From: Pyrinomonadaceae bacterium
Lineage (GTDB): Bacteria; Acidobacteriota; Blastocatellia; Pyrinomonadales; Pyrinomonadaceae
Assembly (NCBI GenBank): GCA_040081025.1
Contig: JBEBGW010000001.1
Location: 1 to 63,491, forward strand
Length of the DNA stretch: 63,491 nt
Reading direction: 5' to 3'
Positions within the stretch are counted from its first letter, which is position 1, and the number at the start of each line of letters is the position of its first letter. Both the position numbers and the translations under genes were made by a program. The notes beneath the pieces were generated by a model, which was given only the letters and a program-made list of their open reading frames with translations, was not told where the DNA came from and searched no databases. Below, in pieces: positions 6,854 to 58,030 of this stretch.

Positions 6854-6870
6854 CTGTCCCGGAGAAAACG

Positions 6871-10299: not shown

Positions 10300-10313
10300 C
10301 TCACAACACGATT

Positions 10314-10336: not shown

Positions 10337-10348
10337 ATAATTTCGAAC

Positions 10349-12589: not shown

Positions 12590-12599
12590 CGCTCACAAG

Positions 12600-19200: not shown

Positions 19201-19652
19201 CTCCGATCGTAAAATTGCGAAGCGGCCGACCGTTTACGGTTGTGAATGGAAACGTCGACGCCAATCTCGATGGTGTCGCAAACACTGACCGTGCTGAGTT
19301 GATCGGCGATCCGTTTTTGGAAAACCCGACCGCAGATAGGTGGTTCAATATTGCCGCTTTTTCCCGGAATCTTGCCGTCACTGGCGTTGCAAAGAATGGA
19401 TCCTCGCCTCGCAACTTACTTGACGGACCCGGCTTCAAAGTCGTTGATCTGGCCCTATCTCGAGACTTCCGGTTTGGCGAACGGTACAAGCTCCGTTTGC
19501 GTGCCGAAGGAACAAATGTCTTCAATATGGTGAACTATGACCAGCCGAATGGTTCCGTTCCGGCAAACATTGCGAACCCTGGCAACTTCGGTAGGATCAC
19601 AGGCGCGGGAGCAATGCGGAAGCTGCAGTTCGGAGCTCGGTTTACGTTCTAG
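16290..19652 (+). CDS. TonB-dependent receptor with CarboxypepD_reg-like N-domain
   Basis: GGAGAGG RBS, signal peptide, GTISDPSGSAVPNASVTA, a plug region and a C-terminal ...ARFTF. Confidence 0.85.
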   Translation: MKLIQSAIALIKPIRRAQNLGLLAVLAAVLILPVAGIAQITTATFVGTISDPSGSAVPNASVTAKNIDTGLTRTVTTGDDGSFRIEFLPVGNYTIEIAAASGFKKAFREGIVLRVNDTARMDFALEVGSVDEQVTVTSAPPEINTSSAELGRTVQTQEIENLPLVERNVYSLLDLTPGVQSNNGGVGSIATASAATSNLSLGFPEQRTLINGGTDGGTGSVNYFLDGGTNMTNLRNTGNILPSPDAIQEFRVQTNAYNAEYGRFANGIVNVLTKSGTNSFRGSLYEFVRNDAFNANEWGAVVDKAPYRRNQFGGTLGGPIIKDKTFFFFSYAGLRQTTSTFLNGAIVPTALERSGDFRSSGLTTLPRDPATGTTLANASTFTCAGNAGVICPNRIDPVAAKILADYIPVANLPGNRWQGNVPNPYNTDEFLGKVDHQLTDDHRLTFSYFNTAGTTTVFPGSGNLPWATQDFTWRQHNLNISDVWVISPDKVNQVWLTYTRNFGGRVNVPDTSLRDLGSSFYPQGTPSLPQITVTGYFTLTNAIGGPRAGTNLYSIRDVFSWNKGRHAIKIGGELTLNKDVQETLLNNYGVFTFNNTSTGNAFADFLVGIPSAITQDAPVTAYTDSWYSALFVQDDFRVHPRVTLNLGLRWDVQTPPTDPENRVANYIPGQKSGVNLAAPVGLLFYGDPGVERGGIPVDYSHFSPRFGIAWDPFGDGKTSLRGAAGIFYGSISGNEWNTQTNTQPFSTRLAFTNTNRRASSTTLLPLGASLSNPYNAFVGGAPFPYTGAFVNGGGVFAVATDFSWPRTFQTNVSIQRQITKDFMVGAAYVGTRSSNLPFGRDINYPVLTPTATSAAANVLSRRPNPLFGAVTLLDSDQKASYDGMQLTTAGRFSKILTFNAFYVFSKTLSSVQLHNNTTQGLSQNASMLELDKGRADTDQRHVFSLSMNFQPNFYGGDNRFAKAILNGWSISPIVKLRSGRPFTVVNGNVDANLDGVANTDRAELIGDPFLENPTADRWFNIAAFSRNLAVTGVAKNGSSPRNLLDGPGFKVVDLALSRDFRFGERYKLRLRAEGTNVFNMVNYDQPNGSVPANIANPGNFGRITGAGAMRKLQFGARFTF

Positions 19653-39487: not shown

Positions 39488-40621
39488 TTAGGCGCTGACC
39501 TCCAAGGCACCTTGGGTCGCGGTGCACTGATAGATCGCCGGTACAATGGTCGTCGAACGGGCGTATTCGGCCTCGATCCGAGCGCTGATCTGATGTAGAT
39601 CTGCGTTGCCGTCGCAAATGCTGATCGTACATCCGCCAAAGCCGCCGCCCATCATTCTGGAGCCGAGTATCTCGGGTTGCGATCGGCAGATCTCCGCCAT
39701 GATGTCCAATTCGCGGCAGCTTACTTCGAACTCATCTCGGAGGCTCGCATGAGATTCATTCATCAGCTTGCCAACTGTTGACAAGTCACCGGATCGGAGA
39801 GCTTCGACGGCCGACAGTACGCGAAGATTCTCGGTCACAACGTGCCTTGCGCGTTTCGCGAGCGCTGTTGGCAGGGTGCCGACCTCGTCGATGTCCGCAT
39901 CTCTAAGCGATCTCTTACCAAGACTCGCGGCCGCCGATTCACACTCGGCTCGCCGCGTGTTGTATTCGCTTTCGGCGAGTGAATGCTTGGTTCGCGTGTC
40001 GCAGATGAGAAACGACGCATCACCGAGCGGGATGTGCTGCCATTCAAGCGAGCGGCAGTCTAGAAACAACGTGTGGCCGGCCTTGCCGAGAACCGACGCC
40101 ATCTGGTCCATGATGCCGCTGTTTACTCCGGCAAATTCGTTTTCCGCTGCCTGCCCGATCTTTGCGATCTAGACGTCGGAAAGATCCAGATCGAACAACT
40201 TTGCCAACGCCGTCGCGATCCCGATTTCGAGGGCGGCGGATGAACTTAGCCCGGCTCCCGATGGGATGTCGCTTGTGATCAGAAGATCGGCTCCGCGGAG
40301 CACATGTCCTGCTCGCTGGATCAACGAGAGAACGCCGTACGGATACTTGGTCCAACCTTTCGCGACGGCCTTGCCATCCAGGTCACCCAGACTGACTTCC
40401 AAAATTTCCGCAAAATCGGTCGAGGCAACCGTTAAACGACCGTCATCTCTTGGCGAGGCTGCGACATACACCGCCTTCTCGATCGCAAACGGCATTACGA
40501 AGCCTTCGTTGTAATCTGTGTGCTCGCCGATCAGATTGACGCGTGCGGGAGCGCGGAAGATCCGCGGCTCGCGGCCGAAGCGTTCGATGAAATCTTGTTG
40601 TAATCGGGAGATATCGATCAC
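39488..40621 (-). pseudogene. galK: Galactokinase interrupted by a single in-frame TAG (complement of 40169-40171)
   Basis: ORFs 40169-40621 and 39488-40111 are in the same frame (the 510-nt offset between their 5' ends, 40621 and 40111, is divisible by 3). The read-through translation ...LFDLDLSDV*IAKIGQAAENEFAGVNSGIMDQMASV restores the conserved GalK motif. The GHMP motif PSGAGLSSSAA lies in the N-terminal part. Confidence 0.7.
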
Positions 40622-41661: not shown

Positions 41662-43199
41662 CGTTGTCCAGCAGTTGGATCGGGCCAGTTGTCCGTGCGG
41701 AACGGCGAAGCGGGAAGGCCTGAATCGTTGGTAAGGTTCGGGTTCTTCGGATTCAGGTTGAACGCGTATCGCGCCGCTTGCGGATCGGTCACGGCAGACG
41801 ACGAGAGCTCGATCCGGTCCTTGCCGACGATCTTAGCCTCTGCCCAATACCATTTGCGGTCGGCTCCGGCGATAGCGAATTCTTCCAGCTTATCGCCGGA
41901 CCTCAGCTTCAAGCCGGCTCCGATGTCCTTGAATGTCAGATAGACCTTACCGTTACTGACATGATGAGAAACCAACGTCGGAGCTTCCATCACTCGTCGT
42001 CCATAAACGTTTCGCAAGGCCCAGATCGACATTCGCTTGCCGACATCGAGCTTGTTCTTTGGGTGAATGTCGCTTGCTTCGCCGATGTCGATCGTGACGA
42101 TCAGGCCATTGTGCTTGTCGGCTATTGCGGTACGGCGTTGATATTCGCGGAGGTGCGACCAGGCACTGTCCTCAGGTTCGGCGTTCTGACGGCGATAGTT
42201 TGGCAGTTGGATGATGCCGAAAGGCATCGCGGGCGATCCCCAACGTTCACGCCATGAACGAATCATCACCGGCAGCAAGATTGCGTATTGTTCTGCTCGT
42301 GCCTCGTTCGATTCGCCCTGATACCACACGGCCCCGCGAATGGCGAAGGGGATCAGGGGTTCGATCATTCCGTCGTATATCGACGATGCGATGCGGTAAT
42401 CGCGAAGAGCGTCGGGCACGCCGGGCGAGGGTGACGGACGAACTCCCGATGCTCGGGCCTTGTCCGAATCTTCCCGCCATTTCTTGATCGCCTCGGCATA
42501 ATCGACACGGACCTTCTCGCGTTCGGCGGCCCAAACTTGAGTACGGTCGACTGCTGGTTTGAGATCGGGCGAGGCGTTCAGATACGAGACCGGCGTCCAC
42601 GCCTCGGCCTGCGATCCGCCGTAGGACGAATTGATGATCCCAACCGGAACCTTCAGATCTTTTTGCAGCTCCAGGGCGAAGAAGTAACCCGCACCCGAAA
42701 AATCTTTCACGTTCTCCGGCGTGGTGGGCAACCACGTCGCGAGCGGGCCTTGCTTCTTTTTGAACGCGACCTCGCGGCTCACATTGAACAGCCGGATGTT
42801 AGGATGGTTCGCCGCCGCGATCGCCGCTTCACCGCCGGTCGATTCGACAACACGCCACTGCATATTCGATTGCCCCGAAACCAGCCAAACCTCGCCGACG
42901 AGGATGTCTTTCAGCTCGATGGCATTCTTACCAGCGATCGTCATCGATCTCGGCCCGGCCGACGCTTCGAACTTGCCTATATCGACACGCCATTTTCCAT
43001 CGGCTCCGGCCACGACGGTTTTCTTCTTTCCCGCAAACGTCACCGTAACCGATTCGCCCGCGTCCGCCGTTCCCCAGATCGGGATCGCCTGCCCCTGCTG
43101 AAGCACCATCGAACTCGCAATAACATCCGGAACCTTAACCTCGGCCACAGCCGACGACGCAGCGACGGCCGAGATCAGTGCTATAAGGAAGATCTTCAT
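41658..43199 (-). CDS. Sialate O-acetylesterase-family carbohydrate esterase (SASA/DUF303)
   Basis: Signal peptide and the GEVWLVSGQSNMQW catalytic block typical of SASA esterases. Confidence 0.8.
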   Translation of the reverse strand: MKIFLIALISAVAASSAVAEVKVPDVIASSMVLQQGQAIPIWGTADAGESVTVTFAGKKKTVVAGADGKWRVDIGKFEASAGPRSMTIAGKNAIELKDILVGEVWLVSGQSNMQWRVVESTGGEAAIAAANHPNIRLFNVSREVAFKKKQGPLATWLPTTPENVKDFSGAGYFFALELQKDLKVPVGIINSSYGGSQAEAWTPVSYLNASPDLKPAVDRTQVWAAEREKVRVDYAEAIKKWREDSDKARASGVRPSPSPGVPDALRDYRIASSIYDGMIEPLIPFAIRGAVWYQGESNEARAEQYAILLPVMIRSWRERWGSPAMPFGIIQLPNYRRQNAEPEDSAWSHLREYQRRTAIADKHNGLIVTIDIGEASDIHPKNKLDVGKRMSIWALRNVYGRRVMEAPTLVSHHVSNGKVYLTFKDIGAGLKLRSGDKLEEFAIAGADRKWYWAEAKIVGKDRIELSSSAVTDPQAARYAFNLNPKNPNLTNDSGLPASPFRTDNWPDPTAGQR

Positions 43200-43235
43200 A
43201 ACAACAGCATAAAATCGCGTCCCCTAATGTAGCAT

Positions 43236-43250
43236 TTAACCGTTTAACCG
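43236..43250. promoter_or_regulatory. Operator motif B, site 2 (TTAACCGTTTAACCG)
   Basis: TTAAC-CG-TTTAA core, 37 bp upstream of the SASA-galT-galK operon start. Confidence 0.4.
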
Positions 43251-43310
43251 AAAAACAGGCCGTCGTTCCGGAGCATTCACCACTCACCACTTACCGTTCA
43301 CCGCTCATCC

Positions 43311-43368
43311 CTGTAAGTATGATGGAAAAAAGAAAGAGTGAGGTCTATGCGCTTTAGTATTCAAACAT
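43311..43368 (-). repeat. Truncated relic of the 5' end of the adjacent 167-aa gene (tandem partial duplication)
   Basis: On the minus strand, ATGTTTGA... directly abuts the TAG of the 43369-43872 gene. 43311-43357 matches 43775-43821 at 42 of 47 positions. The relic lacks ~40 nt present in the intact gene. Confidence 0.6.
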
Positions 43369-43872
43369 CTACGCCGCCTTGCCTTTACCTTTTTCTTTCC
43401 GCCAGAGTTCGTCGTGCAGGCCGAGATGTTCCCGCTCGAAGTCCCTGACCTTATCTAACAGTTCGATGGAGTAGCTTACTGTCGAAAAGAAGCCAACCGT
43501 CGTCCGAAACGCGTCCCGTGCGATCTCGCTGGGCTCGACATCGCCCATCAGTTCTTTGATCTGTTCGTTGCTGATCCGCAGATCGCACGAAACCCATCGC
43601 CACCGAATTTGCGTATCGCGTTTAGTATAATTGCTGATATCTTGTGCACTCATAGGGACACGAGAATACTGCACATGCAACGCTGTCGCAAGCACGCGAA
43701 CACGGAAGTCGGCAAGCCTCGTAAAGTCAAAGAGTTGCCGACGCACGATGGACCAATAGACGCCATCAGCCTTGCTGTAAGGCTGATGGAAAAAAGAAAG
43801 AGCGAGGTCTATGCTTTTTAGCAGGGAGAGTGGTTTCAAGTCTGGGTGCCTATTGCTAAGATGGTCGAACAT
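43369..43872 (-). CDS. Hypothetical protein (167 aa), first gene of the low-GC island
   Basis: An ORF with no motif I recognise and a Lys-rich C-terminus (WRKEKGKGKAA). It is divergent from the DUF262 gene with only a 29-bp spacer. Confidence 0.55.
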   Translation of the reverse strand: MFDHLSNRHPDLKPLSLLKSIDLALSFFHQPYSKADGVYWSIVRRQLFDFTRLADFRVRVLATALHVQYSRVPMSAQDISNYTKRDTQIRWRWVSCDLRISNEQIKELMGDVEPSEIARDAFRTTVGFFSTVSYSIELLDKVRDFEREHLGLHDELWRKEKGKGKAA

Positions 43873-43901
43873 CCAGATTTCCGAAGACCTCCAATAACCC
43901 T

Positions 43902-44993
43902 ATGAGTGATGACAAGATTAAGGATTTGAACGACGTTGAAACCCGTACTTTCTTAGAGGAAGATGAACCTTCGATTCCACCTTCCGATGTGATTGCGTAT
44001 AACGAGCTCAGATCCTGTGCCGACTTATTCCGTATGTATGTGGATGGAATTCTTGAGATTCAACCTTCGTACCAGCGAGAAGTGGTGTGGAAGAATCCAG
44101 CGCAGACGCGGTTCATTGATTCCTTGATTAAACAGCTACCTATTCCGTCGATGTGCTTTAGCTATGATTACCACCTTCAGAAATGGCAGGTTATAGATGG
44201 ATTGCAGAGGATGACAAGCATAATTAACTTTTTATCTGGCGGAACTGGTAAATTGTCGAAGCTCGACGATATAGACACTCAAATATCTGGGCAGCCGGTA
44301 AAAAAATTCAAGAATCGTGATTCACCTCTCTATAAGTATTACAGACGAGTAGAAAACCTTAGCCTACCGATTAATGTCCTGCGCTGCGATCTCACAAAGG
44401 ACAGCCATACAAGTTACATTTTTTCAATCTTTCATCGTCTAAATTCTGGCGGCACAAAGCTTAACAACCAGGAAATTCGCAACTGCATCTTCAGTGGGCC
44501 GTTCAATGAACTTCTCAACGATCTGAACGGCAATGAGGATTGGCTGAAAATCAACCTGATGGAAAAACCCTACGGCTATCGCTTTGTAAAACAGGAACTG
44601 ATCTTGAGAATGTTCGCTTTCAACGAAGGTCTGAAGTCGTATGACGGGCATCTTGCGAAATTCCTCAATACCTATATGAAACAAAATAGGATGATGAGCG
44701 AAAGCGCATTAGCCTCGAAACGAGCGATGTTCGAATCTGCGGTAAGAATTATCTCCGGCAAAATCCTTGTCCAACCTACCAAGCTCGGTACTTCGGTTTT
44801 GGAAGGATTGCTCGTTGGGGTCGCTTCAAACCTCAAAAATCTCCGAACTAAAAGTTCCAACGAGCTGCAATCACTTTACCGTCAGCTCCTGAAAAGTCCG
44901 GAATACTTACCAACTGCCCTTCTTGAGGGACTTGCTAGGAAGGAGCGCGTGACTAAGCGGCTTCAGAGGGCCCGCACCATTTTCAGCAAGTGA
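43902..44993 (+). CDS. DUF262 (ParB-like/GmrSD N-terminal) domain protein lacking a fused DUF1524 nuclease
   Basis: YQREVVW, IDGLQRMTSI and FHRLNSGGTKLNNQEIRN blocks typical of DUF262. I see no His-Me/HNH-type motif in the C-terminal ~150 aa. Confidence 0.8.
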   Translation: MSDDKIKDLNDVETRTFLEEDEPSIPPSDVIAYNELRSCADLFRMYVDGILEIQPSYQREVVWKNPAQTRFIDSLIKQLPIPSMCFSYDYHLQKWQVIDGLQRMTSIINFLSGGTGKLSKLDDIDTQISGQPVKKFKNRDSPLYKYYRRVENLSLPINVLRCDLTKDSHTSYIFSIFHRLNSGGTKLNNQEIRNCIFSGPFNELLNDLNGNEDWLKINLMEKPYGYRFVKQELILRMFAFNEGLKSYDGHLAKFLNTYMKQNRMMSESALASKRAMFESAVRIISGKILVQPTKLGTSVLEGLLVGVASNLKNLRTKSSNELQSLYRQLLKSPEYLPTALLEGLARKERVTKRLQRARTIFSK

Positions 44994-45502
44994 TGCTTTC
45001 GAACGCCTCGATACTTACAACTTTGATTCACATCGAAGGGCAGTACAACGCTGCTATCGCTCCTATGGACAATTTCTACTCCAAGCTTGCCATTCTCGAG
45101 GCTTGTGGCTGGATAGAGGAAGCAATGGATGATGTTCTCGAGCGGTCAATGAACTACAAGATTAAGAAGTCAAAGGACGTAGATTTCGTCTCAAAAAAGA
45201 TTCTAGAAAACTACGGGTTCGATTATTCGGGTAATTTTAGAAAGGTACTTACCTATATTCTCGGGCTTTGGAATATTGGGAAGATGGAACGTCGACTCGA
45301 TCCATTGAAGTTTGCCCGGCTGGTCTCGCAACTTGGAAATCTAAAGCAGGTAAGGGACTCAGCGGCACACACGCACGTGCAAGTGGGAATCACACAATAT
45401 TACGACGGCCCATCTGTTACGCGACAACGACTACTTCATGTTACTGATGGCTTAGCTGATATTGAGCAGGTGCTCATCAGCATGAAACTCACTAAACTCT
45501 AA
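44993..45502 (+). CDS. Small HEPN-like protein (R-x4-H motif)
   Basis: ATG 44993 overlaps the TGA of the DUF262 gene (TGATG); the track's GTG 44990 is an alternative start. It has a single RDSAAH motif (R codon 45353, H codon 45368) in a helical-looking ~170-aa protein. Confidence 0.55.
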   Translation: MLSNASILTTLIHIEGQYNAAIAPMDNFYSKLAILEACGWIEEAMDDVLERSMNYKIKKSKDVDFVSKKILENYGFDYSGNFRKVLTYILGLWNIGKMERRLDPLKFARLVSQLGNLKQVRDSAAHTHVQVGITQYYDGPSVTRQRLLHVTDGLADIEQVLISMKLTKL

Positions 45503-45548
45503 CATGCTGTCCATATTGCCACTGGTGACGACGTTGCGATGCGACCGT

Positions 45549-45577
45549 TTGTTCAGCATCTTTAGAGCCGTTATATT
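45549..45577 (+). promoter_or_regulatory. Candidate promoter TTGTTC-N17-TATATT for the vsr/R-M operon
   Basis: Read directly in the 99-nt gap between the HEPN-like gene and vsr. Confidence 0.35.
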
Positions 45578-45601
45578 TAGGGGAAAGTTAATGCTGCTCC
45601 T

Positions 45602-46015
45602 ATGATAGAACCACCTACAAAAAGTCGCAGCTTCAACATGCGTCAAGTTCGATCAAAGCACACGAAGCCAGAACTACTAGTGCGACGAATGCTCTTCGAA
45701 CGCGGCTTTCGATTCCGACTGCACGACAGGCGCCTTCCAGGTAACCCGGATATCGTTTTGCCTAAGTATAGAGCTGTAATCCTTGTTAACGGCTGCTTCT
45801 GGCATCAACATCCGGGATGCAAACGAGCAACCATGCCAGTGCGAAACGCAGATTTTTGGGAAGAAAAGTTAGCAGCGAACACGGCAAGAGACTCTGCTAC
45901 TAGGCGAAGACTCCACGAACTCAATTGGAATGTCCTTGTAGTTTGGGAGTGTGAGGCTTACGGCGATCCAGAAGGCGTTCTAATCCGACTCATTCGCGAA
46001 ATTACCATGGATTGA
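45602..46015 (+). CDS. vsr: Very-short-patch repair endonuclease
   Basis: 137 aa, collinear from memory with E. coli Vsr (RSFNMRQVRSKHTKPE, LPGNPDIVLPKYR.VI.VNGCFWH.H, WNVLVVWECE). Confidence 0.9.
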   Translation: MIEPPTKSRSFNMRQVRSKHTKPELLVRRMLFERGFRFRLHDRRLPGNPDIVLPKYRAVILVNGCFWHQHPGCKRATMPVRNADFWEEKLAANTARDSATRRRLHELNWNVLVVWECEAYGDPEGVLIRLIREITMD

Positions 46016-46031
46016 ACGATGAGTTTTCATT

Positions 46032-47219
46032 ATGACGAATTATTCAGATAAACCATTTACGACCTGGGACGTTGTCGATTTTTTTTCCGGATGCGGTGGC
46101 ATGTCGTACGGCTTTCACACAGTCGGAGAGCAAACCGGCCAATTCCGTATGGTGGCGGCGTTCGATAATGATCGCCATGCAAACGCGACCTATCGGAGAA
46201 ATTTAGGTATTCAACCGTTTGCAACTGATATTGCGAATGCTGAAATCAATGAGATTGAGAGGCTAATGGTTCTTGGCGGGAGGAAGAAACAGAACCCGCT
46301 GATCGTGATCGGATGCGCCCCGTGTCAAGGATTTTCCTCGCATCGGAAAAAGGATCCAAGGAAAGATGGCAGAAACTCTCTCGTCGGTAAGTTTGGTGAG
46401 ATTGCCGTTGGACTCAGGCCCGACGCGATAATCATGGAAAACGTTCCGGACTTACTCGCAAGGAAGCATTGGAGTCATTATCAAAATTTTCTAAATATCC
46501 TAAATGACAATGGTTATAAGATTTCTTCCGGAATCTTGAACTTCGCGGAATTCGGCGTGCCTCAGGAAAGGCATCGGGCTGTGGTTATAGCCGCAAAAGG
46601 TTTCCAGCCATCAATGCCGTCCGGATTTTTAGGGAGGGATGCATTCCGGACCGTTCGCGATGCAATCGGCAGCCTCCCTCCATTGAAAGCAGGTGAAACA
46701 AGCGTCGTGGACGTGATGCATCAAACCTCTAACCACCGGCCCAGTACGCTAGAAATCATTCGGACTGTACCAAAGAATGGTGGCTCACGGCCCGCCGGCG
46801 TTGGACCTGCATGTTTAGACCGAGTTAAAGGCTTTTATGACGTTTACGGCAGGTTACGTTGGGATCGCCCGGCGGTGACAATTACGGCCCGGTGCCGAAC
46901 TCCATCTTGCGGTAGGTTTGTACATCCGGAACAAGATCGTGGTCTGTCGGTTCGCGAAGCTGGGTTACTCCAAGGTTTTCCGTCAGACTTCGAATTTGAA
47001 GGACCATTTGACGATAAGTTTAAACAGGTCGGCAACGCGGTTTCGCCCATCTTTTCAAAAAGGTTGGCTGGTCATGTTCTGGAAATACTTTCTGGCAAAG
47101 GACGTACTGTCGAACAGACTAAACAAACGCTCGAAAGACCAACTTTCAAGTCGTACAGTGGCTCAATAGCCCGTCTTAAGTTAAAGGATCCCGACAAAGT
47201 CGAACTTATTGCCGAATGA
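46032..47219 (+). CDS. DNA (cytosine-5)-methyltransferase, M1
   Basis: m5C motifs I FSGCGGMSYGF, IV GCAPCQGFS, VI ENV, VIII QERHR and X GNAVSP. Confidence 0.9.
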   Translation: MTNYSDKPFTTWDVVDFFSGCGGMSYGFHTVGEQTGQFRMVAAFDNDRHANATYRRNLGIQPFATDIANAEINEIERLMVLGGRKKQNPLIVIGCAPCQGFSSHRKKDPRKDGRNSLVGKFGEIAVGLRPDAIIMENVPDLLARKHWSHYQNFLNILNDNGYKISSGILNFAEFGVPQERHRAVVIAAKGFQPSMPSGFLGRDAFRTVRDAIGSLPPLKAGETSVVDVMHQTSNHRPSTLEIIRTVPKNGGSRPAGVGPACLDRVKGFYDVYGRLRWDRPAVTITARCRTPSCGRFVHPEQDRGLSVREAGLLQGFPSDFEFEGPFDDKFKQVGNAVSPIFSKRLAGHVLEILSGKGRTVEQTKQTLERPTFKSYSGSIARLKLKDPDKVELIAE

Positions 47220-48244
47220 GTCCTCGAATCCTCACTGCAATAGATTGTTTCTCAGGGGCCGGCGGTCTTTCAATTGGATTCGTCGACGCCGGGTTCGATA
47301 TCAGATATGCTTTCGATCTGGATTCCACGAGCATAGACACATACCGCCAGAATATCGGCCCGCACGCAGAAGTTTCTTCAATCTATGACGTTTCAAGGCT
47401 GTCCATGGAGAAATTTCTCGGAGAGACACTAGGCGAAATAGATGTGGTATTCGGTGGGCCACCATGTCAGGGATTTAGCGTTCAGCGTCGTGGATCTGAC
47501 GTAGACAGCCGAAATGACCTTGTAATGGAATTCGCGAGGCTTGTGTTTGATATTCGCCCGCGATTCTTCGTGATGGAAAACGTCGGAGGGCTTCTTGCAC
47601 CAAGGGGAGTGGACGTAATGCGTGAACTCCGAGCGGCATGCGAAAGCCAGGGGTATTACCTGCATATTAAGAAACTGGACGCCTCACTTTACGGTGTCCC
47701 TCAGTTCCGAAAACGAGTTTTTATCGTGGGAGAGCGCTGGGAGAGCGGTCTTTTAAGATTTACCTTTCCAGAGCCTTACGTTAGCAACGGAAATGTCACG
47801 ACGGTGCGCGATGCAATCGAGGACCTTACTGACCGTTCGGAAGGAGATGTCCCGAATCATCGTTCGGACAAATTGTCTCCTATAAATATAGAACGCATTC
47901 GATGGGTAAAAGAAGGACAAGGACGGGATTCTCTTCCGGATCACCTCCAACTTAACTGCCATAGAACAAATTCCCGACACAGACATCTCGATGTCTATGG
48001 TCGGATGTCATGGGATAAACCCGCCCCTACAATCACTGCAAGGTTTGACAGTTTTTCCCGGGGACGGTTTGGTCACCCGGTGCTTGATCGGACCATTACG
48101 CTTCGAGAAGGAGCTCGTTTGCAGACCTTTAAGGATGATTTTATCTTCCAAGGAACGAAGACCGAGGTAGCAAAGCAGATCGGTAATGCTGTCCCTCCAA
48201 TTTTGGCTCGGGCCTTAGCTGAACGGATCAAAAACTGTATTTAG
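47216..48244 (+). CDS. DNA (cytosine-5)-methyltransferase, M2
   Basis: m5C motifs FSGAGGLSIGF, GGPPCQGFS, ENV, QFRKR and GNAVPP. It has a 4-nt overlap (ATGA) with M1. Confidence 0.9.
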   Translation: MSPRILTAIDCFSGAGGLSIGFVDAGFDIRYAFDLDSTSIDTYRQNIGPHAEVSSIYDVSRLSMEKFLGETLGEIDVVFGGPPCQGFSVQRRGSDVDSRNDLVMEFARLVFDIRPRFFVMENVGGLLAPRGVDVMRELRAACESQGYYLHIKKLDASLYGVPQFRKRVFIVGERWESGLLRFTFPEPYVSNGNVTTVRDAIEDLTDRSEGDVPNHRSDKLSPINIERIRWVKEGQGRDSLPDHLQLNCHRTNSRHRHLDVYGRMSWDKPAPTITARFDSFSRGRFGHPVLDRTITLREGARLQTFKDDFIFQGTKTEVAKQIGNAVPPILARALAERIKNCI

Positions 48245-48246
48245 GT

Positions 48247-50409
48247 ATGGAACAAGAAATTGATGACATTGGCTCAGTCGAAGATGGGACGTTCGGTGAG
48301 GGCAGCAGCACGGGCAACCCGCTGAATAGTTGGCCGAGCGGAACCCGGGATGTTACAGAGTTTCCTACCTTCGTGTTCGATGGGACTTCGACGAACGTGG
48401 AACTAGTTTCACCGAAAGCTCACCTTAAAGCCTTTCTTGCTCTCGATGGCGTCGACGCAACAGACTATCCGCGCCAGCTGTCAGGAGGTGGCCTAGGCAA
48501 TTCTGATCAGCGAGCGAGGTCCTACCGAAAATTGTATGAACGTCTCGGTCTTATCTTTCGCGACGGCGAAAAAATTCGCCTATCTGAAATAGGACTCGGA
48601 CTTCGGGACTTTCCAGCCACTCTACCGGAGACTCTTGAAAATTATGCGGAGGGCGAAAAGCAAAGGTTCGTTCAGAACTTCCGCTCCAAAGCTATCCGGA
48701 TTCTCGCGAAAGATCAGCTCGATAATCCGACGGAGATACAGCGACATAGATTACCTCCAGGCTGCGATGTCTTCCCTTTCAGATGCATCTGGCAAGCAAT
48801 GTTGGAGTTGGATAATAAGCTTCACTATGAAGAGGTAAATCGTTGTCTACTTTATGTAATGAAAATGGCCGACCTTCCAGCGGCAATCGATCGAATTAGA
48901 ACTGCAAGAAACCAGACTGAGTCGTACGCCGAAGCGAGTACCGATGAACTGAGTGAATCGCTGGGGCTTCCAGTATTTGAGGATCAAGCATCCGCTCGAG
49001 TGTCTTCGTGGTTTAGTCTGGCGGGCTGGGGAGGCCTGATCATCGAGCAAGGAAACCAAACTGATGGTTTCCGACATTTAGTGCCAGAGGCAATCCCTTT
49101 GATTCGTGACGAGCTGTCAAAGCCACCTACGTTTTATTCGGCGCAGGACGAAGTGGACTGGTTTGATCATTACCTTAGGACTGTTATTCCGCGGGACACG
49201 ATGGACGCCACGCCGTCGGAATTTATCGAAGCTTTCAAAACGGATCTTCTGGTCGCGGGACTGCAATTCGATGAGGAAACAACAAACCGGTTTGTTGCAA
49301 GCTGCCAGACGAAGGCGTTTGTAATCCTCACCGGCTTGTCCGGAGCGGGCAAAACGAAACTAGCTCAAGCATTTGCTCGATGGCTTTCACCAAGGGATGG
49401 CTCACCTCGCTACGAAATTATCGCGGTAGGGCCAGACTGGACGAGCAAGGATTACGTTTTGGGTTACCCAGACGCGCTAGACTCGACAAAGTATGTCCGC
49501 ACGCAAGTATTGAACATGATTCTGCGGGCGGCAGGAGAGAGCCGATCCCCGTTCGTACTCGTTTTCGACGAGATGAATCTGTCGCACGTAGAACGCTATT
49601 TCGCCGATATTCTTTCCAGCCTTGAGTCGAACGAAGCGATCTGTCTGCACAACGATTTGACTGATCGCGACGGTATTCCTGCCCGGATTAGCTCCCTTCC
49701 TCCCAACCTGTTCATTATTGGGACGGTGAATGTTGACGACACAACCTACATGTTTTCGCCTAAAGTTCTCGACCGCGCAAATGTTATCGAGTTCAGGGTT
49801 GATTCTTCATCGATGCGAAGTTTTCTTGATGGATCGAGTTCAGTCAGTCTTGAAAATCTTGATGGGAAAGGTGCCATTTATGCCCGAAGCTTTGTCGAAA
49901 GTTGTAAAAAAATTCCCTCGCTCGAAGACGAAGAAATATCGATTGTAACTGAGGAAATAATGCTAGTGTTCCGAATTCTCGAGTACTTCGGCTATGAGTT
50001 CGGATACAGGACCGCCTCTGAAATGAAGAACTTTATTGCGTTTCACAAAGCGCTCACGCCGACCACTTGGCGGATATCGGCGGCCATCGATGCTCAGGTC
50101 TTCCAAAAGGTTTTGCCGAAATTACACGGATCAAGACGAAAGATCGAGCCGCTCCTAACTAGCTTGGCAATCGCGTGTCATTCGAGCCGAAAGTGGGCCG
50201 ATGATGCAGCTGGCTTTTTGAGCGATGAGGTCTTTCAAAAGGCTATTGGCGCCGATTCGTCATCGCATCCAAGTGACCCTCTTGAAACCGATGAAAAAGG
50301 TAGACTTCTTATGTCTTATCAGACAGCGATTTATCCGCTGAGTCTCGCAAAATTGCAGCGAATGTTACGCGGTTTAGAAGATGGTTTTACAAGCTTTGCT
50401 GAGGCTTAA
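48247..50409 (+). CDS. McrB-like AAA+ (GTPase-type) restriction subunit with an uncharacterised ~330-aa N-terminal domain (R1)
   Basis: Walker A GLSGAGKTK, the McrB-type Walker B block FVLVFDEMNLSHVERYFADILSSLE, and IIGTVNVDD...LDRANVIEF. Confidence 0.8.
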   Translation: MEQEIDDIGSVEDGTFGEGSSTGNPLNSWPSGTRDVTEFPTFVFDGTSTNVELVSPKAHLKAFLALDGVDATDYPRQLSGGGLGNSDQRARSYRKLYERLGLIFRDGEKIRLSEIGLGLRDFPATLPETLENYAEGEKQRFVQNFRSKAIRILAKDQLDNPTEIQRHRLPPGCDVFPFRCIWQAMLELDNKLHYEEVNRCLLYVMKMADLPAAIDRIRTARNQTESYAEASTDELSESLGLPVFEDQASARVSSWFSLAGWGGLIIEQGNQTDGFRHLVPEAIPLIRDELSKPPTFYSAQDEVDWFDHYLRTVIPRDTMDATPSEFIEAFKTDLLVAGLQFDEETTNRFVASCQTKAFVILTGLSGAGKTKLAQAFARWLSPRDGSPRYEIIAVGPDWTSKDYVLGYPDALDSTKYVRTQVLNMILRAAGESRSPFVLVFDEMNLSHVERYFADILSSLESNEAICLHNDLTDRDGIPARISSLPPNLFIIGTVNVDDTTYMFSPKVLDRANVIEFRVDSSSMRSFLDGSSSVSLENLDGKGAIYARSFVESCKKIPSLEDEEISIVTEEIMLVFRILEYFGYEFGYRTASEMKNFIAFHKALTPTTWRISAAIDAQVFQKVLPKLHGSRRKIEPLLTSLAIACHSSRKWADDAAGFLSDEVFQKAIGADSSSHPSDPLETDEKGRLLMSYQTAIYPLSLAKLQRMLRGLEDGFTSFAEA

Positions 50410-52267
50410 TTCTGTGGAGGAATCAACTTTAGACTTTCGCGACCGTGACGATCGAACGATCTGCAAGGTAAGGCTTGTTGCAGAGAAGAGCGGCACGCTA
50501 CGGAATATTACTAGAGAAGAAGCGATTGAGTTTTCCGAAGAAACCGTTCAATTGCTGGAGAATGCTTCATACGAATATCAGGTCAATGACCCGGATTTCG
50601 AACTCATGGAATCAGCGGCGATTACAAGAAGTAAACTTGCGGTCGGCGGGCTAGACAGTGGACGTGTCTCCCCCGAGAGCTTCACGGGCATATTACCGCT
50701 TGGAGTGGCTCGGAAAACCGATTCACTCAGAATGATTGCAACTGCTGCGGTTGAGGTTCGCTCACGAAAGCTCAGTTACCGAAAGGACTATCGACATATG
50801 CTGGACGCAATTGCATCCAGGTGCTCTAATTTGCTTCTGGATTTAGCCGCCCCAACCCAGGCGCGATTCTCCCCTGATCCGAATAGATTCCAGGAGGAAC
50901 TTGCTCAACGGTTCGCCTTCATCTCTTCGGTGCTTCATTCAAAGGAATTTCACGACTCGATTGGTAGGGTGATCAGTCGACCTTTCCGACGAGCAACGAC
51001 GACGCACGTCGAACGACGGACCTCCCGAGGCTTTAGGCCATCCAACTCAATACTTCGTCAAATTCCTTCAAAACTTCCTAGAGTTAAAGTTCCCGAACGT
51101 CATCCGCTAAACAATTTACTCTCGAATCCACATTGTTCGGGACCTACCATTCCGGGGAAACTTACAGTTTCAGAATATTCGGAGACGATCGACAATCCTG
51201 AGAATCGATTCATTAAGCACAGTTTACTCGTCTACAGCGATTATCTTTCGAAGGTTGCCCATATAGCGGCGCAGACAAAGCCAGTCGAAAGGTATCGGCG
51301 ACTACGAGGAGAAGTTGCAGAGCTAGCGCGAGAAATCGAAGCAATCCTCGCAGACAATCTTTTCAAGGAGATTTCGAGACCTACTGCCTATTCGTTGGCT
51401 AGTCCGGTGCTGCAAAAAAGGGCTGGTTACCGCGAATTGGTGCAGGTATGGGTCAAGTTCAACCTTGCCTCTCTCCTAACTTGGAAGGGAGGCGAGGACG
51501 TATATGGGTCGGGTAAGCGGAATATGGATGTACTCTATGAGTATTGGCTATTCTTCGAATTACTCGAGATCATCAGTCAGGTCTTTTCACTTCCTAAAGT
51601 CGAATATCGCGAGCTATTCCATATCGAACCGAGCGGTTTCGGGGTTCGTTTGAAATCGGGCAGTAACCTAGTAATCAATAAAGTCACGTCCGTCTACGAT
51701 ACAAATCTCCGCGTTGTTTTTAGTTACAACCGGACATTCAGTCCATCACCGGCATACTCGCGGGAAGGATCTTGGACTCTCCCAATGAGGCCAGATTTCA
51801 CGCTGAGCGTATATCCAGCTGAGCTTTCTGCGGAGCAAGCAGAGTTTGATGAAAAGATTGTGCATCTACATTTCGACTCTAAATACAAGGCTGATCATAT
51901 CGAGGACGTTTTTGAAATTGTCGACAGTCCCGACTCGGTCGATGCTGGAGCGAGAATTCGGAATAGAGCCCGGGCTAAAAATACAGACTTTTTAAAGATG
52001 CATTCGTATCGTGATGCCATCAAACGCTCCTATGGTGCTTATGTACTCTTCCCTGGCACCGACAATCGAAGGTGGCAGACCTTTGGAGAGATTCTCCCTG
52101 GCCTGGGTGCGTTTGCAATGCGCCCTAGCGAAGGGGGCGCGGCTCAAGGCTCTGAGAAGCTTAGGGAATTTCTTGACGATTTAGTAGTTCATCTTTGCGA
52201 GCGCAGTACTAAGCGGTCGTTGCTAGCTCAACACGTCTTTCAGACCTATACCGACGAGCAATCCTAG
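50381..52267 (+). CDS. McrC-like PD-(D/E)xK nuclease subunit (R2)
   Basis: C-terminal RPDFTL ... LHFDSKYK ... YRDAI motif, equivalent to the McrC D...D-x-K-Y-K core. GTG 50414, preceded by GAGG, is an alternative start that removes the overlap with R1. Confidence 0.7.
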   Translation: MVLQALLRLNSVEESTLDFRDRDDRTICKVRLVAEKSGTLRNITREEAIEFSEETVQLLENASYEYQVNDPDFELMESAAITRSKLAVGGLDSGRVSPESFTGILPLGVARKTDSLRMIATAAVEVRSRKLSYRKDYRHMLDAIASRCSNLLLDLAAPTQARFSPDPNRFQEELAQRFAFISSVLHSKEFHDSIGRVISRPFRRATTTHVERRTSRGFRPSNSILRQIPSKLPRVKVPERHPLNNLLSNPHCSGPTIPGKLTVSEYSETIDNPENRFIKHSLLVYSDYLSKVAHIAAQTKPVERYRRLRGEVAELAREIEAILADNLFKEISRPTAYSLASPVLQKRAGYRELVQVWVKFNLASLLTWKGGEDVYGSGKRNMDVLYEYWLFFELLEIISQVFSLPKVEYRELFHIEPSGFGVRLKSGSNLVINKVTSVYDTNLRVVFSYNRTFSPSPAYSREGSWTLPMRPDFTLSVYPAELSAEQAEFDEKIVHLHFDSKYKADHIEDVFEIVDSPDSVDAGARIRNRARAKNTDFLKMHSYRDAIKRSYGAYVLFPGTDNRRWQTFGEILPGLGAFAMRPSEGGAAQGSEKLREFLDDLVVHLCERSTKRSLLAQHVFQTYTDEQS

Positions 52268-52570
52268 TCGCACCCCCAAGGTGGTTGGCCGATTTTTAGG
52301 TTAAATTTTCTTAAAGCCACGCTGGACGTCGAATCCCATCTCCACAACATTCTCCCATCCACACAACACACATCCACACATATGACCAACGATCTAGAAA
52401 TGGGGATACAAGAGAGCGAATAGTGAATAGTGATGAGGACGGACGCTCACGGAAATATGTTGACGTGGCGTTGCATGTGTGGCACTATGGCTAACCCCGG
52501 GGTTTGGCCCCTGATCTTTGAAAGCCGGGGAATTTGAAAAATACACCGGAAACATGAAATTGCGTGTGTG

Positions 52571-52695
52571 TGGGACAGTGGGACACGCAAATGTCGGGAC
52601 ACTTGAACCGCTGATTTTCAGCCGGATTTGCCGATTCGGGACTATCCGAAAAAACGAGCGGTCGCTGGGACGCTGGGACATGGGACACTTGACCC
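52571..52695. repeat. Two clusters of three GGGAC motifs, each ending in GGGACACTTGA(A/C)CC
   Basis: Cluster 1 is 52571-52609 and cluster 2 is 52664-52695, with one extra GGGAC at 52638. The terminal 14-mers (52596-52609 and 52682-52695) match at 13 of 14 positions. Confidence 0.6.
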
Positions 52696-52760
52696 CCATA
52701 AAATGGGCCTCTCAAGCGAATTCCACAGGAAAATCACTTCCAAAATGTCACGATTTTGGG

Positions 52761-52844
52761 GTGCTAAATGGCCCTTCCCGGGCCCTAAATCGACCTCGCG
52801 AGGCCCTAATTCGACGCAATCGTGCCTAATTCGATCACTTTCTC
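52761..52844. repeat. Four degenerate ~21-bp tandem units with core GC(C)CTAA(A/T)T(C)GA
   Basis: CTAAAT/CTAATT cores at 52764, 52785, 52805 and 52826, a spacing of 20-21 bp. The last unit overlaps the stop of the PL22-like gene. Confidence 0.55.
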
Positions 52845-54208
52845 GCCAGCCATTCCCTGGGAACGGGGATGATGCAGATGTTCATCGAGCGGCCGTCGGC
52901 GGAGAGCATGGCGGATTGGATCTGGATCTTGGTTCCGTCGGGGCTCATCGTCGGGTGCGGGTGATCGGCGGCGGTGGTTTTGTGGCCGGCAGAGAGAAGC
53001 ATCATCTCGCTGTCGCGGCGGTCGATGAGGTAGATGCTGCGGGAGAAATCGTCACCGACCGCAAAGCGTCCGTCGGGAGATCCGCTGACGTGCCACAGGC
53101 CGCTTCCTTCTTTGGTTTGGCCGACAATGAGCACTTCGCGAGTGCGAAGGTTTGCAATAGCGAGTCCGGTCGGACGTTCGCGGGTTCCGGACGGACCCCA
53201 AGCGGGTTCCTGTCCCGGGTTCGCTCCGCCGACCGCGGTCGCCTCGCCGACATCCTTGCTGCCGCCCGGTATCCGGCGATGGCCCATGATCGCGAACGCT
53301 ACTTCGTCTTTTCCGATAACGGTTTCGTGCGTGACCCAGTCGCGATCATCCTCGGGGAACACGGGGCGAAGTCCGGAGCCGTCGGCGCGGACGGTCCAGA
53401 TCCGCTGCGGAGATTTGCCGCCCGTCTCCCAGCAGAAGACGATCTCGCCCTCGACCCATGGATTCGTCTGAATGTGGCCGACCTGAAAACCAACCGAGAT
53501 GACGTGCTTCGTCTCGCCGGTCTTGATGTTCATCGCTCCGATGCCCGATGGACCCGCTCCCATGTTCCGCGGGCCGAATGTCGATTCGATCTTGGTGCCT
53601 TCGACCATCCGCCGCTGAGCCTCTTCGCGGCCGATCCGGAAGAACGCCCACTGCTCTGTACCGCCGTCGAGAGTCATGTCGCCGCCCGCTCCGATCTCAG
53701 GCGGAGTCGTTCCGCAGATGCGTTGATAAGCATCGGCGCTCTTGAGCGCGCCGGACTTGCTGTCGGCAAAGAGCCTCTCGAGATCGACCTCGACGATCTG
53801 CATCGATTGCGGTCCGCGAGGAGCTTGCGGGTTGACCGCCTGCCCCGGCCGACGCGACGGATCGCGCATGAAGTAGAGCTTCATCGAATTGCGAGCGATG
53901 TTGAGCATGCCTGTGTAGCCGCCCTCAGTGACCTGGACCATCTCGCCGGACTCTTCGTTCACCGCCATCGCTTCGCCAGCGACGCGGTTCGAGCGGAAGA
54001 TCAGCCACTTGCCATCGGACGTCCATTGGTTGTGCGTCTGATAGATCTTTGAATCTCCATTCGGTGTGCTCGTCAGGAACGTGAGCATCGTGCCGGTCAC
54101 GGGATCTTTGACAACTTGCTTCTCCGAAGGAAATCGGCGACCGATCTGGGCATCGGCGACGGAGACAAGAGTGAGTAGAGCGATGGCCAATGCGGTCTTT
54201 CGGATCAT
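52835..54208 (-). CDS. Oligogalacturonate lyase-like beta-propeller protein (PL22-like)
   Basis: Signal peptide, then FPSEKQVVKDPVTG...LT, SDGKWLIFRSNR and HPHPTMSPDGTKIQ blocks. These resemble oligogalacturonide lyase family proteins from memory, and the pectin context supports the call. Confidence 0.55.
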   Translation of the reverse strand: MIRKTALAIALLTLVSVADAQIGRRFPSEKQVVKDPVTGTMLTFLTSTPNGDSKIYQTHNQWTSDGKWLIFRSNRVAGEAMAVNEESGEMVQVTEGGYTGMLNIARNSMKLYFMRDPSRRPGQAVNPQAPRGPQSMQIVEVDLERLFADSKSGALKSADAYQRICGTTPPEIGAGGDMTLDGGTEQWAFFRIGREEAQRRMVEGTKIESTFGPRNMGAGPSGIGAMNIKTGETKHVISVGFQVGHIQTNPWVEGEIVFCWETGGKSPQRIWTVRADGSGLRPVFPEDDRDWVTHETVIGKDEVAFAIMGHRRIPGGSKDVGEATAVGGANPGQEPAWGPSGTRERPTGLAIANLRTREVLIVGQTKEGSGLWHVSGSPDGRFAVGDDFSRSIYLIDRRDSEMMLLSAGHKTTAADHPHPTMSPDGTKIQIQSAMLSADGRSMNICIIPVPREWLARK

Positions 54209-55921: not shown

Positions 55922-55936
55922 TTTAACCGATTAACC
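55922..55936. promoter_or_regulatory. Operator motif B, site 3 (TTTAACCGATTAACC)
   Basis: TTAAC-CG-ATTAA core, ~50 bp upstream of the galT2 start. Confidence 0.4.
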
Positions 55937-55988: not shown

Positions 55989-57019
<1,031 letters not shown>

Positions 57020-57023
<4 letters not shown>

Positions 57024-58030
57024 ACGATATTCGAGATTTGCTCGAACCTATCCAACGTCTACACCGGATGATCCGTGATCGTGTGGTGGAAGAGTGCGAG
57101 CGGAGTTCAGTAGCGAGCTTGTCGCGAGTGGTTGCTGATGACGAGGGCGACACGATCTTTGCGGTTGATCGGGTGAGTGAAGAACTGCTGGTCGAATTCA
57201 TCGAGCGCGAGATCGCCTCTAAGGTGCCGATTGTTCTTATAGCTGAGGGAATTGAAGGCGGGAAGGTTATCTTGCCCCGAGGCTCCGACGAGCGCGAGGC
57301 TGCGTGGCGAATACTGGTTGACCCGATCGACGGGACTCGCGGGTTGATGTATCAGAAACGGAGCGCGTGGGTGCTCACCGGTGTCGCGGCAAATCGGGGT
57401 GACGCGACCTCGCTTGCAGACATCGAGCTTGCCGTTCAGACAGAGATCCCGCTGGTTAAGCAGCATCTATCGGATATGTTATGGGCGGTTCGCGGAGAGG
57501 GGTTTTCTGTGGAGCGTTTCAACCGGGTCAGCGGCGAAACTTCGGCTGTGCATTTATCGCCGTCGAAAGCCCCGACGATCGAACAGGGTTACGCGACCAT
57601 CTCTCGTTTCTTCCCGGGCTATCGCGGAGAGCTTGCGGCGATAGATGATGAAGTTGTCGCTCGTTCGCTCGGTGCTCCGAAGGAAGGAAAGGCGCAGTGT
57701 TTTGAGGACCAGTACATCTCGACGGGCGGCCAATTGTATGAGCTGATCGCCGGTCACGACCGATTCATTGCCGACTTAAGGCCACTGATGCGTGGGCGAA
57801 GTGCGGCGGGCTATTCGGAGCTGAGTATCTGCTGCCATCCTTACGATCTCGCCACGGAATTGATCGCTCGCGAAGCGGGCGTGATAATCACCGGTGTCGA
57901 TGGCTCTCAGCTTGAGGCTCCACTGAATGTTAAGGCGGATGTTGCCTGGATCGGGTATGCGAATGAGCAGATTCGGCAGCAGATCGAACCGCATCTTGCG
58001 ACGGTGCTGAAAGAAAGAAGGATCGCATAG
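57020..58030 (+). CDS. Inositol monophosphatase/FBPase-superfamily sugar phosphatase-like protein
   Basis: The [13 protein letters not shown] motif (DPIDGT) is typical of the IMPase fold. It has 4-nt overlaps or abutments with both neighbours. Confidence 0.6.

Follow-up and report, generated by a model that had tools for sequence, protein, structure and literature searches.

A probable horizontally acquired phage-defence island within a sugar-utilization locus of a Pyrinomonadaceae bacterium

Organization and borders of the island

The 63,491 bp stretch analysed here (contig JBEBGW010000001.1 of assembly GCA_040081025.1, a Pyrinomonadaceae bacterium), referred to throughout as the window, contains a 9.58 kb segment of probably foreign DNA at coordinates 43255–52834, which we call the island and which extends from the operator of a SASA gene on the left to the stop codon of a PL22-like gene on the right. 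The left flank includes SASA, galT and galK and the right flank includes the PL22-like gene and GH28, all on the minus strand, such that the segment is indeed bordered by two minus-strand sugar operons, as an earlier note on this sequence had described. The coordinates proposed in that note (43260–52834) are matched almost exactly, and the eight open reading frames (ORFs) that it placed at 43369–52267 are present, none of them being a sugar-catabolism gene in domain and profile searches. The island is composite, and consists of a PD-T4-2 gene pair, a five-gene operon coding for a very-short-patch endonuclease (Vsr), two methyltransferases and a McrBC-like pair (in the order Vsr, M1, M2, R1, R2), an orphan gene of 94 codons, and non-coding DNA. 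PADLOC reports PD-T4-2 subunits A and B, Vsr, two Type II methyltransferases, and a McrB-like match to PDC-M26A, so the term defence island is apt, with at least two recognized defence systems present.

The segment differs markedly from its surroundings in composition. Its G+C content (GC) is 0.485 compared with 0.557 in the remainder of the window, and none of 348 same-size windows outside the island has a GC below 0.547. When 1-kb windows are considered there is no overlap between the nine inside (GC ≤0.506) and the 53 outside (≥0.523; Mann-Whitney p = 2e-6), and the sliding-window profile shows a single sustained GC trough in the 63.5 kb, at ~43.3–52.8 kb. Tetranucleotide usage (strand-symmetrized) correlates with the host profile at 0.67–0.77 inside and 0.88–0.95 outside, and GC at third codon positions (GC3) is 0.45–0.51 in seven of the island genes versus 0.62–0.75 in flanking genes. 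The lower GC that had been estimated from small samples is thus real, and all three measures (sliding GC, tetranucleotide usage and GC3) deviate strongly from the flanks.

Comparison with the three closest relatives, L084, L085 and L086 (loci used for comparison are given by L numbers), whose PL22-like genes have 89–92% amino-acid and ~85% nucleotide identity to that of the window, shows where the homology stops. On the right, nucleotide alignments with these three loci end at 52847, 52837 and 52834, at the PL22-like stop codon. On the left, L085 realigns at window coordinates 43254–43150, such that the limit of homology is at ~43254–43256. Just outside this limit is an operator-like site upstream of SASA, TTTAACCGTTTAACC (43235–43249, minus strand), which is native and represents the last conserved host DNA on the left; its core, GTTAAACGGTTAAAT, does not vary among the seven SASA upstream regions that were aligned and lies ~35 nt ahead of the start codon, and upstream of the core nothing is conserved in this alignment. 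A conserved operator core with nothing conserved beyond it, together with the ends of the alignments, delimits the foreign segment at ~43255–52834. The right junction is also present in an independent assembly, Logan contig L081, which contains R2 (the rightmost gene of the island), the adjoining spacer and the PL22-like gene with 100% identity over 4189 bp. This contig was reached via P0001, which is the 617-aa call of R2; exact-protein look-ups of R2, PD-T4-2A, SASA and the PL22-like protein gave no record, and the 617-aa call of R2 alone led to a match.

The operator-like motif has the shape of an imperfect palindrome, TTAA-N-CG-N-TTAA, and TTTAACCGNTTAACC has exactly two matches in the window (43235–43249 and 55922–55936) where 0.2 would be expected by chance. 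The second copy, TTTAACCGATTAACC (55922–55936, plus strand), is located in the divergent GH28/galT2 promoter, is likewise native and part of the same regulon, and lies 3.1 kb from the island border and so not beside the island. The motif is retained upstream of SASA wherever SASA heads its own transcription unit (L003, L005, L007, L009, L012 and L085) and in the GH28/galT2 divergent promoter of L012, L016, L026, L090, L108 and L112; it is not present at the tight PL22-like/SASA junctions of relatives. These patterns indicate that the two flanking units form one regulon and that SASA in this lineage has its own conserved operator and presumably its own promoter. As SASA is served by its own operator, the island lies in intergenic DNA that separates two transcription units, and no operon is split. 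The earlier note had inferred from motifs common to both flanks that one functional locus is interrupted; the motif is shared and is conserved in relatives, but the copies belong to two promoters and do not mark the island borders, and while the island does lie inside a sugar-utilization locus whose flanking units form one regulon, it does not break an operon.

The gene pair at 43902–45502 is identified by its profile matches as a PD-T4-2 system. Subunit A (43902–44993, plus strand), a DUF262/GmrSD_N protein (ParB-like NTPase), matches the PADLOC PD-T4-2_A profile over its full length (E = 3e-149), as well as Pfam GmrSD_N (7e-26) and phrog_2598 (3e-55), and carries the sequence DGLQR, corresponding to the DGQQR-type motif of PD-T4-2. 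Subunit B (44990–45502, plus strand), the start of which overlaps the end of A by 4 nt, is of HEPN type, matches the PADLOC PD-T4-2_B profile over its full length (E = 3e-46), and has the motif RDSAAH in agreement with the Rx4H HEPN motif. PD-T4-2 is listed as a DUF262 plus HEPN system (PMC10952713), and was described in E. coli ECOR65, which it guards against phage T4 (Vassallo et al. 2022, PMC9519451). The window pair has the same two-gene DUF262 and HEPN arrangement, with both PADLOC profiles matched at full length, and differs in that the host is an acidobacterium, where its anti-phage role is predicted. By analogy with other DUF262 systems, subunit A would sense phage DNA in an NTP-dependent manner and subunit B would be the nuclease effector. 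No relatives of PD-T4-2A were found in viral contigs, plasmids yielded only distant DUF262 proteins (30% identity), and a PDB sequence search gave no match.

Absence from relatives and the route of arrival

Relatives of the SASA esterase assign the window to the Acidobacteriota, class Blastocatellia, family Pyrinomonadaceae. The relatives used for comparison consisted of 80 genome loci and 80 metagenome loci, searched by tblastn with all island and flanking proteins. Island genes are present in 0 of these 160 Pyrinomonadaceae loci, which together with the composition supports the proposal of a horizontally acquired, lower-GC defence island inside a sugar locus with no visible mobility gene. 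In ~18 of the 160 loci the PL22-like gene directly adjoins SASA with a gap of ~30–130 bp (e.g. L002, L006, L014, L016, L026, L039, L088–L090, L106–L108, L112 and L113), and the gene order is GH28, PL22-like, SASA, galT, galK, and aldolase/short-chain dehydrogenase (SDR). The opposite pattern, with all relatives carrying the same genes and no empty site, was not seen. In other loci, 1–8 kb of host-like GC separates PL22-like and SASA and contains GH43, apiosidase, GH97 and PKD-domain genes. We considered whether these larger gaps are themselves islands and rejected this for the distant relatives, in which they contain native carbohydrate-active enzyme genes of host-like GC.

The empty site suggested by the earlier note can therefore be recognized as PL22-like/SASA adjacency in ~18 loci, but not as a clean empty site in the three closest relatives, each of which has something else at this position. 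L084 has a frameshifted IS200-like Y1 transposase gene (3409–3983), L086 has genes for an Unstab_antitox antitoxin, a TPR protein and a Y1 transposase (1357–1590, 1692–2945 and 3015–3437), and L085 has a DAO-family oxidoreductase gene (4110–5267); none of this cargo has sequence in common with the non-coding ends of the window's island. Since each of the three closest relatives has different cargo at the PL22-like/SASA junction, the site behaves as a permissive hotspot of variable gene content. Defence islands in hotspots between core genes are similar in their foreign composition, varying cargo, clustered defence genes, and the presence of toxin-antitoxin or transposase genes in sister alleles; the island described here differs from them in having no integrase, tRNA or attachment (att) repeats, and in that the hotspot lies inside a carbohydrate-utilization locus.

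No tRNA gene is present in the entire 63.5-kb window, no integrase or transposase domains or remnants were identified by domain searches or by tblastn with resolvase, large serine recombinase and Y1 transposase sequences, and the two ends of the island have no common repeat of 9 nt or longer. The earlier observation that an integrase, transposase or tRNA is absent from the borders thus holds, and extends to recombinase remnants and border repeats. The island most likely arrived by replacement of a variable segment through recombination in the conserved flanks, a route that we favour because close relatives have different cargo at the same junction.

Alternatively, the island could be a decayed site-specific element from which the recombinase gene and att sites have disappeared, such as a prophage fragment or an island once moved by a serine recombinase or a tyrosine integrase. 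We regard this as less likely, while noting that several features fit it. Homologues of the 94-aa island protein are situated upstream of serine recombinases (L164–L168) or among HTH_17 excisionase-type genes (L169), and an operon related to that in the island is followed by a large serine recombinase in L082; in the island itself, however, tblastn finds no remnant of a recombinase, the ends lack common repeats of ≥9 nt, and there is no tRNA. The GC of the spacer at the right end (0.51 versus 0.38–0.41 in host intergenic DNA) is what decayed coding DNA would have, although neither its nucleotide sequence nor its translations resemble the fetched loci or plasmids. PD-T4-2A matches a phage protein family and a pair of 47-nt direct repeats suggests past recombination, whereas the unrelated cargo at the same junction in three close relatives fits hotspot exchange. 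Recombination in the flanks is thus preferred to a decayed element as the origin of the island, although the data do not choose between the two.

The restriction-modification operon

A 99-nt gap containing a terminator-like hairpin separates PD-T4-2B from the restriction-modification operon, in which Vsr, M1, M2, R1 and R2 are all transcribed rightwards (plus strand) with gene spacings of −4 to +16 nt, and in which the motifs of all five proteins are intact. The first gene (45602–46015) encodes the Vsr (T:G mismatch) endonuclease, which has the motif NGCFWH and matches Pfam Vsr (9e-29) and TIGR00632 (2e-37, above its cutoff). M1 (46032–47219) and M2 (47216–48244), which overlap by 4 nt, are both 5-methylcytosine (m5C) methyltransferases. 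M1 has FSGCG, APCQ, ENV and QxRxR motifs and matches Pfam DNA_methylase (4e-51) and TIGR00675, and M2 has FSGAG, PPCQ, ENV and QxRxR motifs and a Pfam match at 1e-61; PDB matches of M1 and M2 give no hint of the target site.

R1 (48247–50409) is a McrB-family AAA+ GTPase with Walker A (GLSGAGKT), Walker B (FDEMN) and NxxD (NVDD) motifs, and its motor domain matches McrB chains 6ut3, 6hz4 and 7vsr at E ~1e-6, together with NCBIfam McrB and Pfam AAA_5. Its N-terminal domain of 335 aa (residues 1–335) is rare, with only four homologues in 5.8 billion proteins. The AlphaFold model of this domain has a mean predicted local distance difference test score (pLDDT) of 63, with a core at 70–95, and matches the recognition domains of N.BspD6I and BpuJI (E of 3e-5 to 8e-4, probability 1.0, template-modelling (TM) score ~0.5); no fold other than these was found at E <0.01. 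The domain is therefore provisionally assigned as a Type IIS-type DNA reader on the strength of the predicted fold; the sites recognized by the N.BspD6I and BpuJI domains are asymmetric and unmodified.

R2 (50381–52267, with an alternative start at 50414 that gives 617 aa) is a McrC-type nuclease, matching Pfam DUF2357 (PF09823, 2e-33) and PDDEXK_7 (PF04411, 6e-24) and no other Pfam family. DUF2357 is the McrB-activating domain. The PD-(D/E)xK motif is present as RPD...DSK, and residues P471, D472, D499 and K501 are invariant across 23 homologues, the nearest of which (excluding self-matches) is 46% identical. A PDB sequence search with R2 gave no match; there are five distant matches on plasmids and none in phages, and a scan of viral contigs with the R2 alignment found only four distant loci.

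The operon recurs elsewhere. L174 has the same Vsr-M-M-R1-R2 order, and in it the first methyltransferase is 66% identical to M1, the second 64% identical to M2, and the R1 N-terminal domain 49% identical to that of the window; L082 has Vsr, a fused double methyltransferase, R1 and R2; L177 has M-R1-R2; and the IMG/VR contigs L170 and L171 have M-R1-R2-Vsr. The hosts of these related operons are unrelated, with GC of 0.35–0.50, and the proteins have 40–66% identity. In L082, a 74.5-kb metagenome contig, a full GmrSD gene (DUF262, DUF1524 and DUF4268) is positioned directly upstream of Vsr, and a large serine recombinase gene lies downstream of R2, in a region at 1356–14104. A DUF262-type gene is thus upstream of the cassette in both L082 and the window, and could provide a modified-DNA sensor that complements restriction of unmodified DNA, or its presence could be a coincidence.

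Two characterized systems have comparable architectures. LlaJI, encoded by Lactococcus plasmid pNP40, has two 5mC methyltransferases, a McrB-like specificity subunit R1 and a PD-(D/E)xK subunit R2, and restricts unmethylated GACGC/GCGTC (PMC1459862). PcaI (PcaRCI) of Pectobacterium carotovorum RC5297 combines a Dcm-like methyltransferase with an AAA+ GTPase and a DUF2357 nuclease, restricts unmethylated DNA, and is encoded in a low-GC, strain-variable region (PMC8989522). A 2024 census of McrBC systems reported that methyltransferase-associated clades are widespread and left their description for later (PMC11090510).

The window operon shares with PcaI the combination of a Dcm-like m5C methyltransferase, a McrB-like AAA+ GTPase and a DUF2357/PD-(D/E)xK nuclease, as well as a location between conserved flanks, in accessory DNA of lower GC that varies among strains. 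It differs in having two methyltransferases and Vsr, where PcaI has one methyltransferase acting on the palindrome CCNGG and is described with no mention of Vsr (PMC8989522), and in the rare R1 N-terminal domain with its four homologues, the comparison with PcaIA and PcaIB being by description only. With LlaJI it shares two co-oriented 5mC methyltransferases (for an asymmetric site in LlaJI) followed by a McrB-like R1 and a PD-(D/E)xK R2. However, R2.LlaJI belongs to PF09563 (PMC3424549) and the window R2 does not, being DUF2357/PDDEXK_7; the reader of R1.LlaJI is of B3 type whereas that of the window R1 is predicted to be of BpuJI/N.BspD6I type, and the window R1 has no sequence match to the LlaJI.R1 N-terminal domain in the PDB; and LlaJI has no Vsr. 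An AAA+ GTPase and a DUF2357 nuclease are both present, and the linkage to a methyltransferase is found in L174, L082, L177, L170 and L171 as well, such that by domain content the operon groups with the PcaI-type, methyltransferase-associated McrBC-like systems and by sequence falls outside the LlaJI family.

A working scheme can be proposed from these comparisons. M1 and M2 would each methylate one strand of an asymmetric site, such a site being implied by the pair of strand-specific methyltransferases, and the predicted Type IIS-type domain at the R1 N-terminus would read that site when unmethylated. By analogy with McrBC, LlaJI and PcaI, the R1 McrB-type GTPase ring would then translocate DNA, and R2, through DUF2357 and its PD-(D/E)xK domain, would activate the ring and cut. 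Vsr would mend the T:G mismatches arising from deamination of m5C, which is the established role of Vsr enzymes. The resemblance of the R1 N-terminal fold to BpuJI and N.BspD6I points to a LlaJI/PcaI-like mode of action in which an asymmetric site is read, and the operon most likely encodes a methylation-protected McrBC-like restriction enzyme of the LlaJI/PcaI kind, with both the asymmetry of the target and the restriction of unmethylated DNA being inferred by analogy.

We also considered that R1-R2 is a classical Type IV McrBC-like system that cuts modified DNA, and that Vsr, M1 and M2 constitute a separate, neighbouring orphan module. The R1 motor and the R2 DUF2357/PD-DxK nuclease are homologous to McrB and McrC, McrBC systems are in general Type IV, and the R1-R2 pair in L175 has no dedicated methyltransferase. 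The window proteins do share with McrBC of E. coli and Thermococcus the NxxD GTPase motor of McrB and the DUF2357 and PD-DxK of McrC; those systems are solitary, however, and read methylated DNA through ADAM/DUF3578, YTH or EVE domains, whereas here the methyltransferases are in the operon and the reader is predicted to be sequence-specific. The classical Type IV combination of a modified-base reader with no cognate methyltransferase is thus not what is found, with the proviso that the reader model is of moderate quality. Several further points make this explanation improbable: the five genes are spaced by only −4 to +16 nt and form one tightly packed operon, a methyltransferase is again linked to R1-R2 in L174, L082, L177, L170 and L171 in hosts with GC of 0.35–0.50, the predicted R1 N-terminal fold is that of a sequence-specific Type IIS reader and not a modified-base reader, an m5C-dependent nuclease beside two m5C methyltransferases would risk cutting self-DNA, and PcaI and LlaJI demonstrate that such an architecture restricts unmethylated DNA.

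A more ambitious proposal, for which we would put the odds a little short of even, is that R1-R2 represents an undescribed sub-class of McrB-family motor-nucleases in which a Type IIS-style multi-winged-helix reader (BpuJI/N.BspD6I/FokI-like) is mounted on a McrB GTPase. The enzyme would be sequence-specific, translocating and methylation-blocked, and would be accompanied by two strand-specific m5C methyltransferases and a co-transcribed Vsr offsetting the m5C load, with the five-gene unit moving between phyla (as in the window, L174 and L082).

Overall reading and smaller features

The composition, absence from relatives, domain content, intact catalytic motifs and recurrence of the operon lead us to interpret 43255–52834, with a probability of about 0.8, as a composite phage-defence island that was acquired horizontally, lies in the intergenic DNA between PL22-like and SASA, and carries PD-T4-2 and a LlaJI/PcaI-like Vsr-M1-M2-R1-R2 operon. 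Several points weigh against this interpretation. No same-species genome, and hence no strict empty-site allele joining 43.25 to 52.83 kb, is present in the genome and metagenome collections, and the closest relatives hold other cargo in place of a clean empty site. The left junction has no independent assembly. PADLOC has no model that matches R2, and R1 matches the candidate family PDC-M26A alone; the R1 N-terminal model is moderate (pLDDT of 63 from a five-sequence alignment, with TM of ~0.5). In L175, R1-R2 lack a methyltransferase of their own and lie beside a separate HinfI-type restriction-modification system, such that the linkage is not universal.

It is highly improbable that the block is an assembly or binning chimera. 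The window does look metagenome-assembled, with an abrupt change in composition and a left junction seen in one assembly, but the flanks are the neighbours expected from relatives, and their order and orientation are correct, as would not be the case after a chimeric join; L081 moreover runs across the right junction with 100% identity over 4189 bp. Equally implausible is that the island genes are ancestral, with the low GC an effect of protein composition; there is no same-species genome with which to polarize the event, but many independent losses across the 160 loci would be required, GC3 and tetranucleotide usage deviate too and are not dictated by protein, and the nearest homologues of the cassette are only 40–66% identical and in unrelated hosts with GC of 0.35–0.50.

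We thus regard the segment as a genuine defence island that belongs to a familiar class; its restriction enzyme is a recognizable, if uncommon, McrBC-like variant, and the island does not overturn current understanding. Few defence systems have been studied in the Acidobacteriota. Here, a soil acidobacterium appears to have taken up anti-phage cargo inside a polysaccharide-utilization locus with its conserved operator undisturbed. Among the methyltransferase-associated McrBC-like restriction systems flagged in PMC11090510 the operon is a clear-cut case, and its rare, probably Type IIS-type reader may be of use for the study and engineering of restriction enzymes.

The non-coding stretch between R2 and the PL22-like gene (52268–52834) is 567 bp long, close to the ~570 bp of repeat-rich DNA that the earlier note described, although the description as repeat-rich is only moderately borne out: the repeats are short (10–16 nt), include three copies of CCTAAWTCGA, TGGGAC-type and CA-rich repeats, and place the segment in the top ~3% of same-length windows for repeat load. 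The three CCTAAWTCGA copies (52784–52834) are 21 and 20 nt apart, corresponding to about two helical turns, and end at the PL22-like stop codon; this spacing suggests candidate protein-binding sites. The GC of the spacer is 0.506, versus 0.38–0.41 in host intergenic DNA. RNA folding of both strands reveals no excess structure (z = −0.05 and −0.72), spacer ORFs have no Pfam match and no coding signature, and neither the spacer nor the left non-coding DNA has nucleotide or six-frame similarity to any of the fetched loci, nor the spacer to plasmids. A reasonable guess is that the spacer is decayed coding DNA of a former occupant of the site. An Rfam search of 43000–53100 gave no match.

The leftmost island gene (43369–43653, minus strand) is probably only 94 codons long, although the maximal ORF (167 aa) extends to 43872, since the N-terminal extension is unsupported. 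A word-index search matched only the protein itself, called as 94 aa, and an exhaustive HMMER search identified five small homologues, all of which align from approximately Met74 of the maximal ORF; the start of the homologues near this methionine points to a real gene at 43369–43653. The protein model (pLDDT of 79) has a ferredoxin/RNA-recognition-motif (RRM)-like fold and no significant PDB match in a fold search. In L164–L168 a serine recombinase gene directly follows the homologue, which is itself preceded by a gene for a PPDK-N/PEP-utilizer/HD protein, and in L169 the homologue is among small genes that include an HTH_17 gene. The homologues in L164–L168 are translationally coupled to the large PPDK_N/PEP-utilizer/HD-domain gene through a 4-nt overlap (L165, 3–2255 and 2252–2554; L168, 932–1555), and the two genes followed by a serine recombinase look like an uncharacterized mobile two-gene module.

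The 94-aa gene is bracketed by two copies of a 47-nt direct repeat (A, 43311–43357; B, 43775–43821; both plus strand), which are 89% identical and 464 nt apart. A perfect 11-bp hairpin (43763–43789) precedes copy B, and PD-T4-2A begins 80 nt beyond that copy. Each copy contains a plus-strand mini-ORF ending in a stop codon, MMEKRKSEVYAL in copy A and (L)MEKRKSEVYAF in copy B, with the general form M(M)EKRKSEVYA(L/F); two of the three differences within the mini-ORF are synonymous, which is too few changes to show coding. The repeats could be a recombination scar or a duplicated leader, and had no match in viral contigs.

Beyond the right border, a second galT paralogue and an inositol-monophosphatase-family gene (55989–58030) diverge from GH28 across the promoter with the second operator copy, and this pair is kept in the same place in many relatives (L011, L013, L016, L090, L108 and L112). 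The two GalT genes of the locus are ~40% identical to one another. On the left, galK (39488–40621, minus strand) has an in-frame TAG at codon 151 (40169–40171), where three relatives encode leucine; it corresponds to a single TTG-to-TAG change, and the frame is otherwise undamaged. Either galK has very recently become a nonsense pseudogene or the TAG is a sequencing error; if it is real, the galactokinase step encoded just downstream of the island would be inactive.

One other dip in tetranucleotide correlation (0.756) is present in the window, at 16.5–19.5 kb, and was considered as a second island. It coincides with a gene (16290–19652) encoding a 1120-aa CarboxypepD_reg and TonB-dependent-type outer-membrane β-barrel protein, and its GC is normal, so it was rejected as an island, the dip being an effect of protein composition and not foreign DNA. 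A ROK-family regulator gene (14985–16211) is located just upstream of this β-barrel gene.

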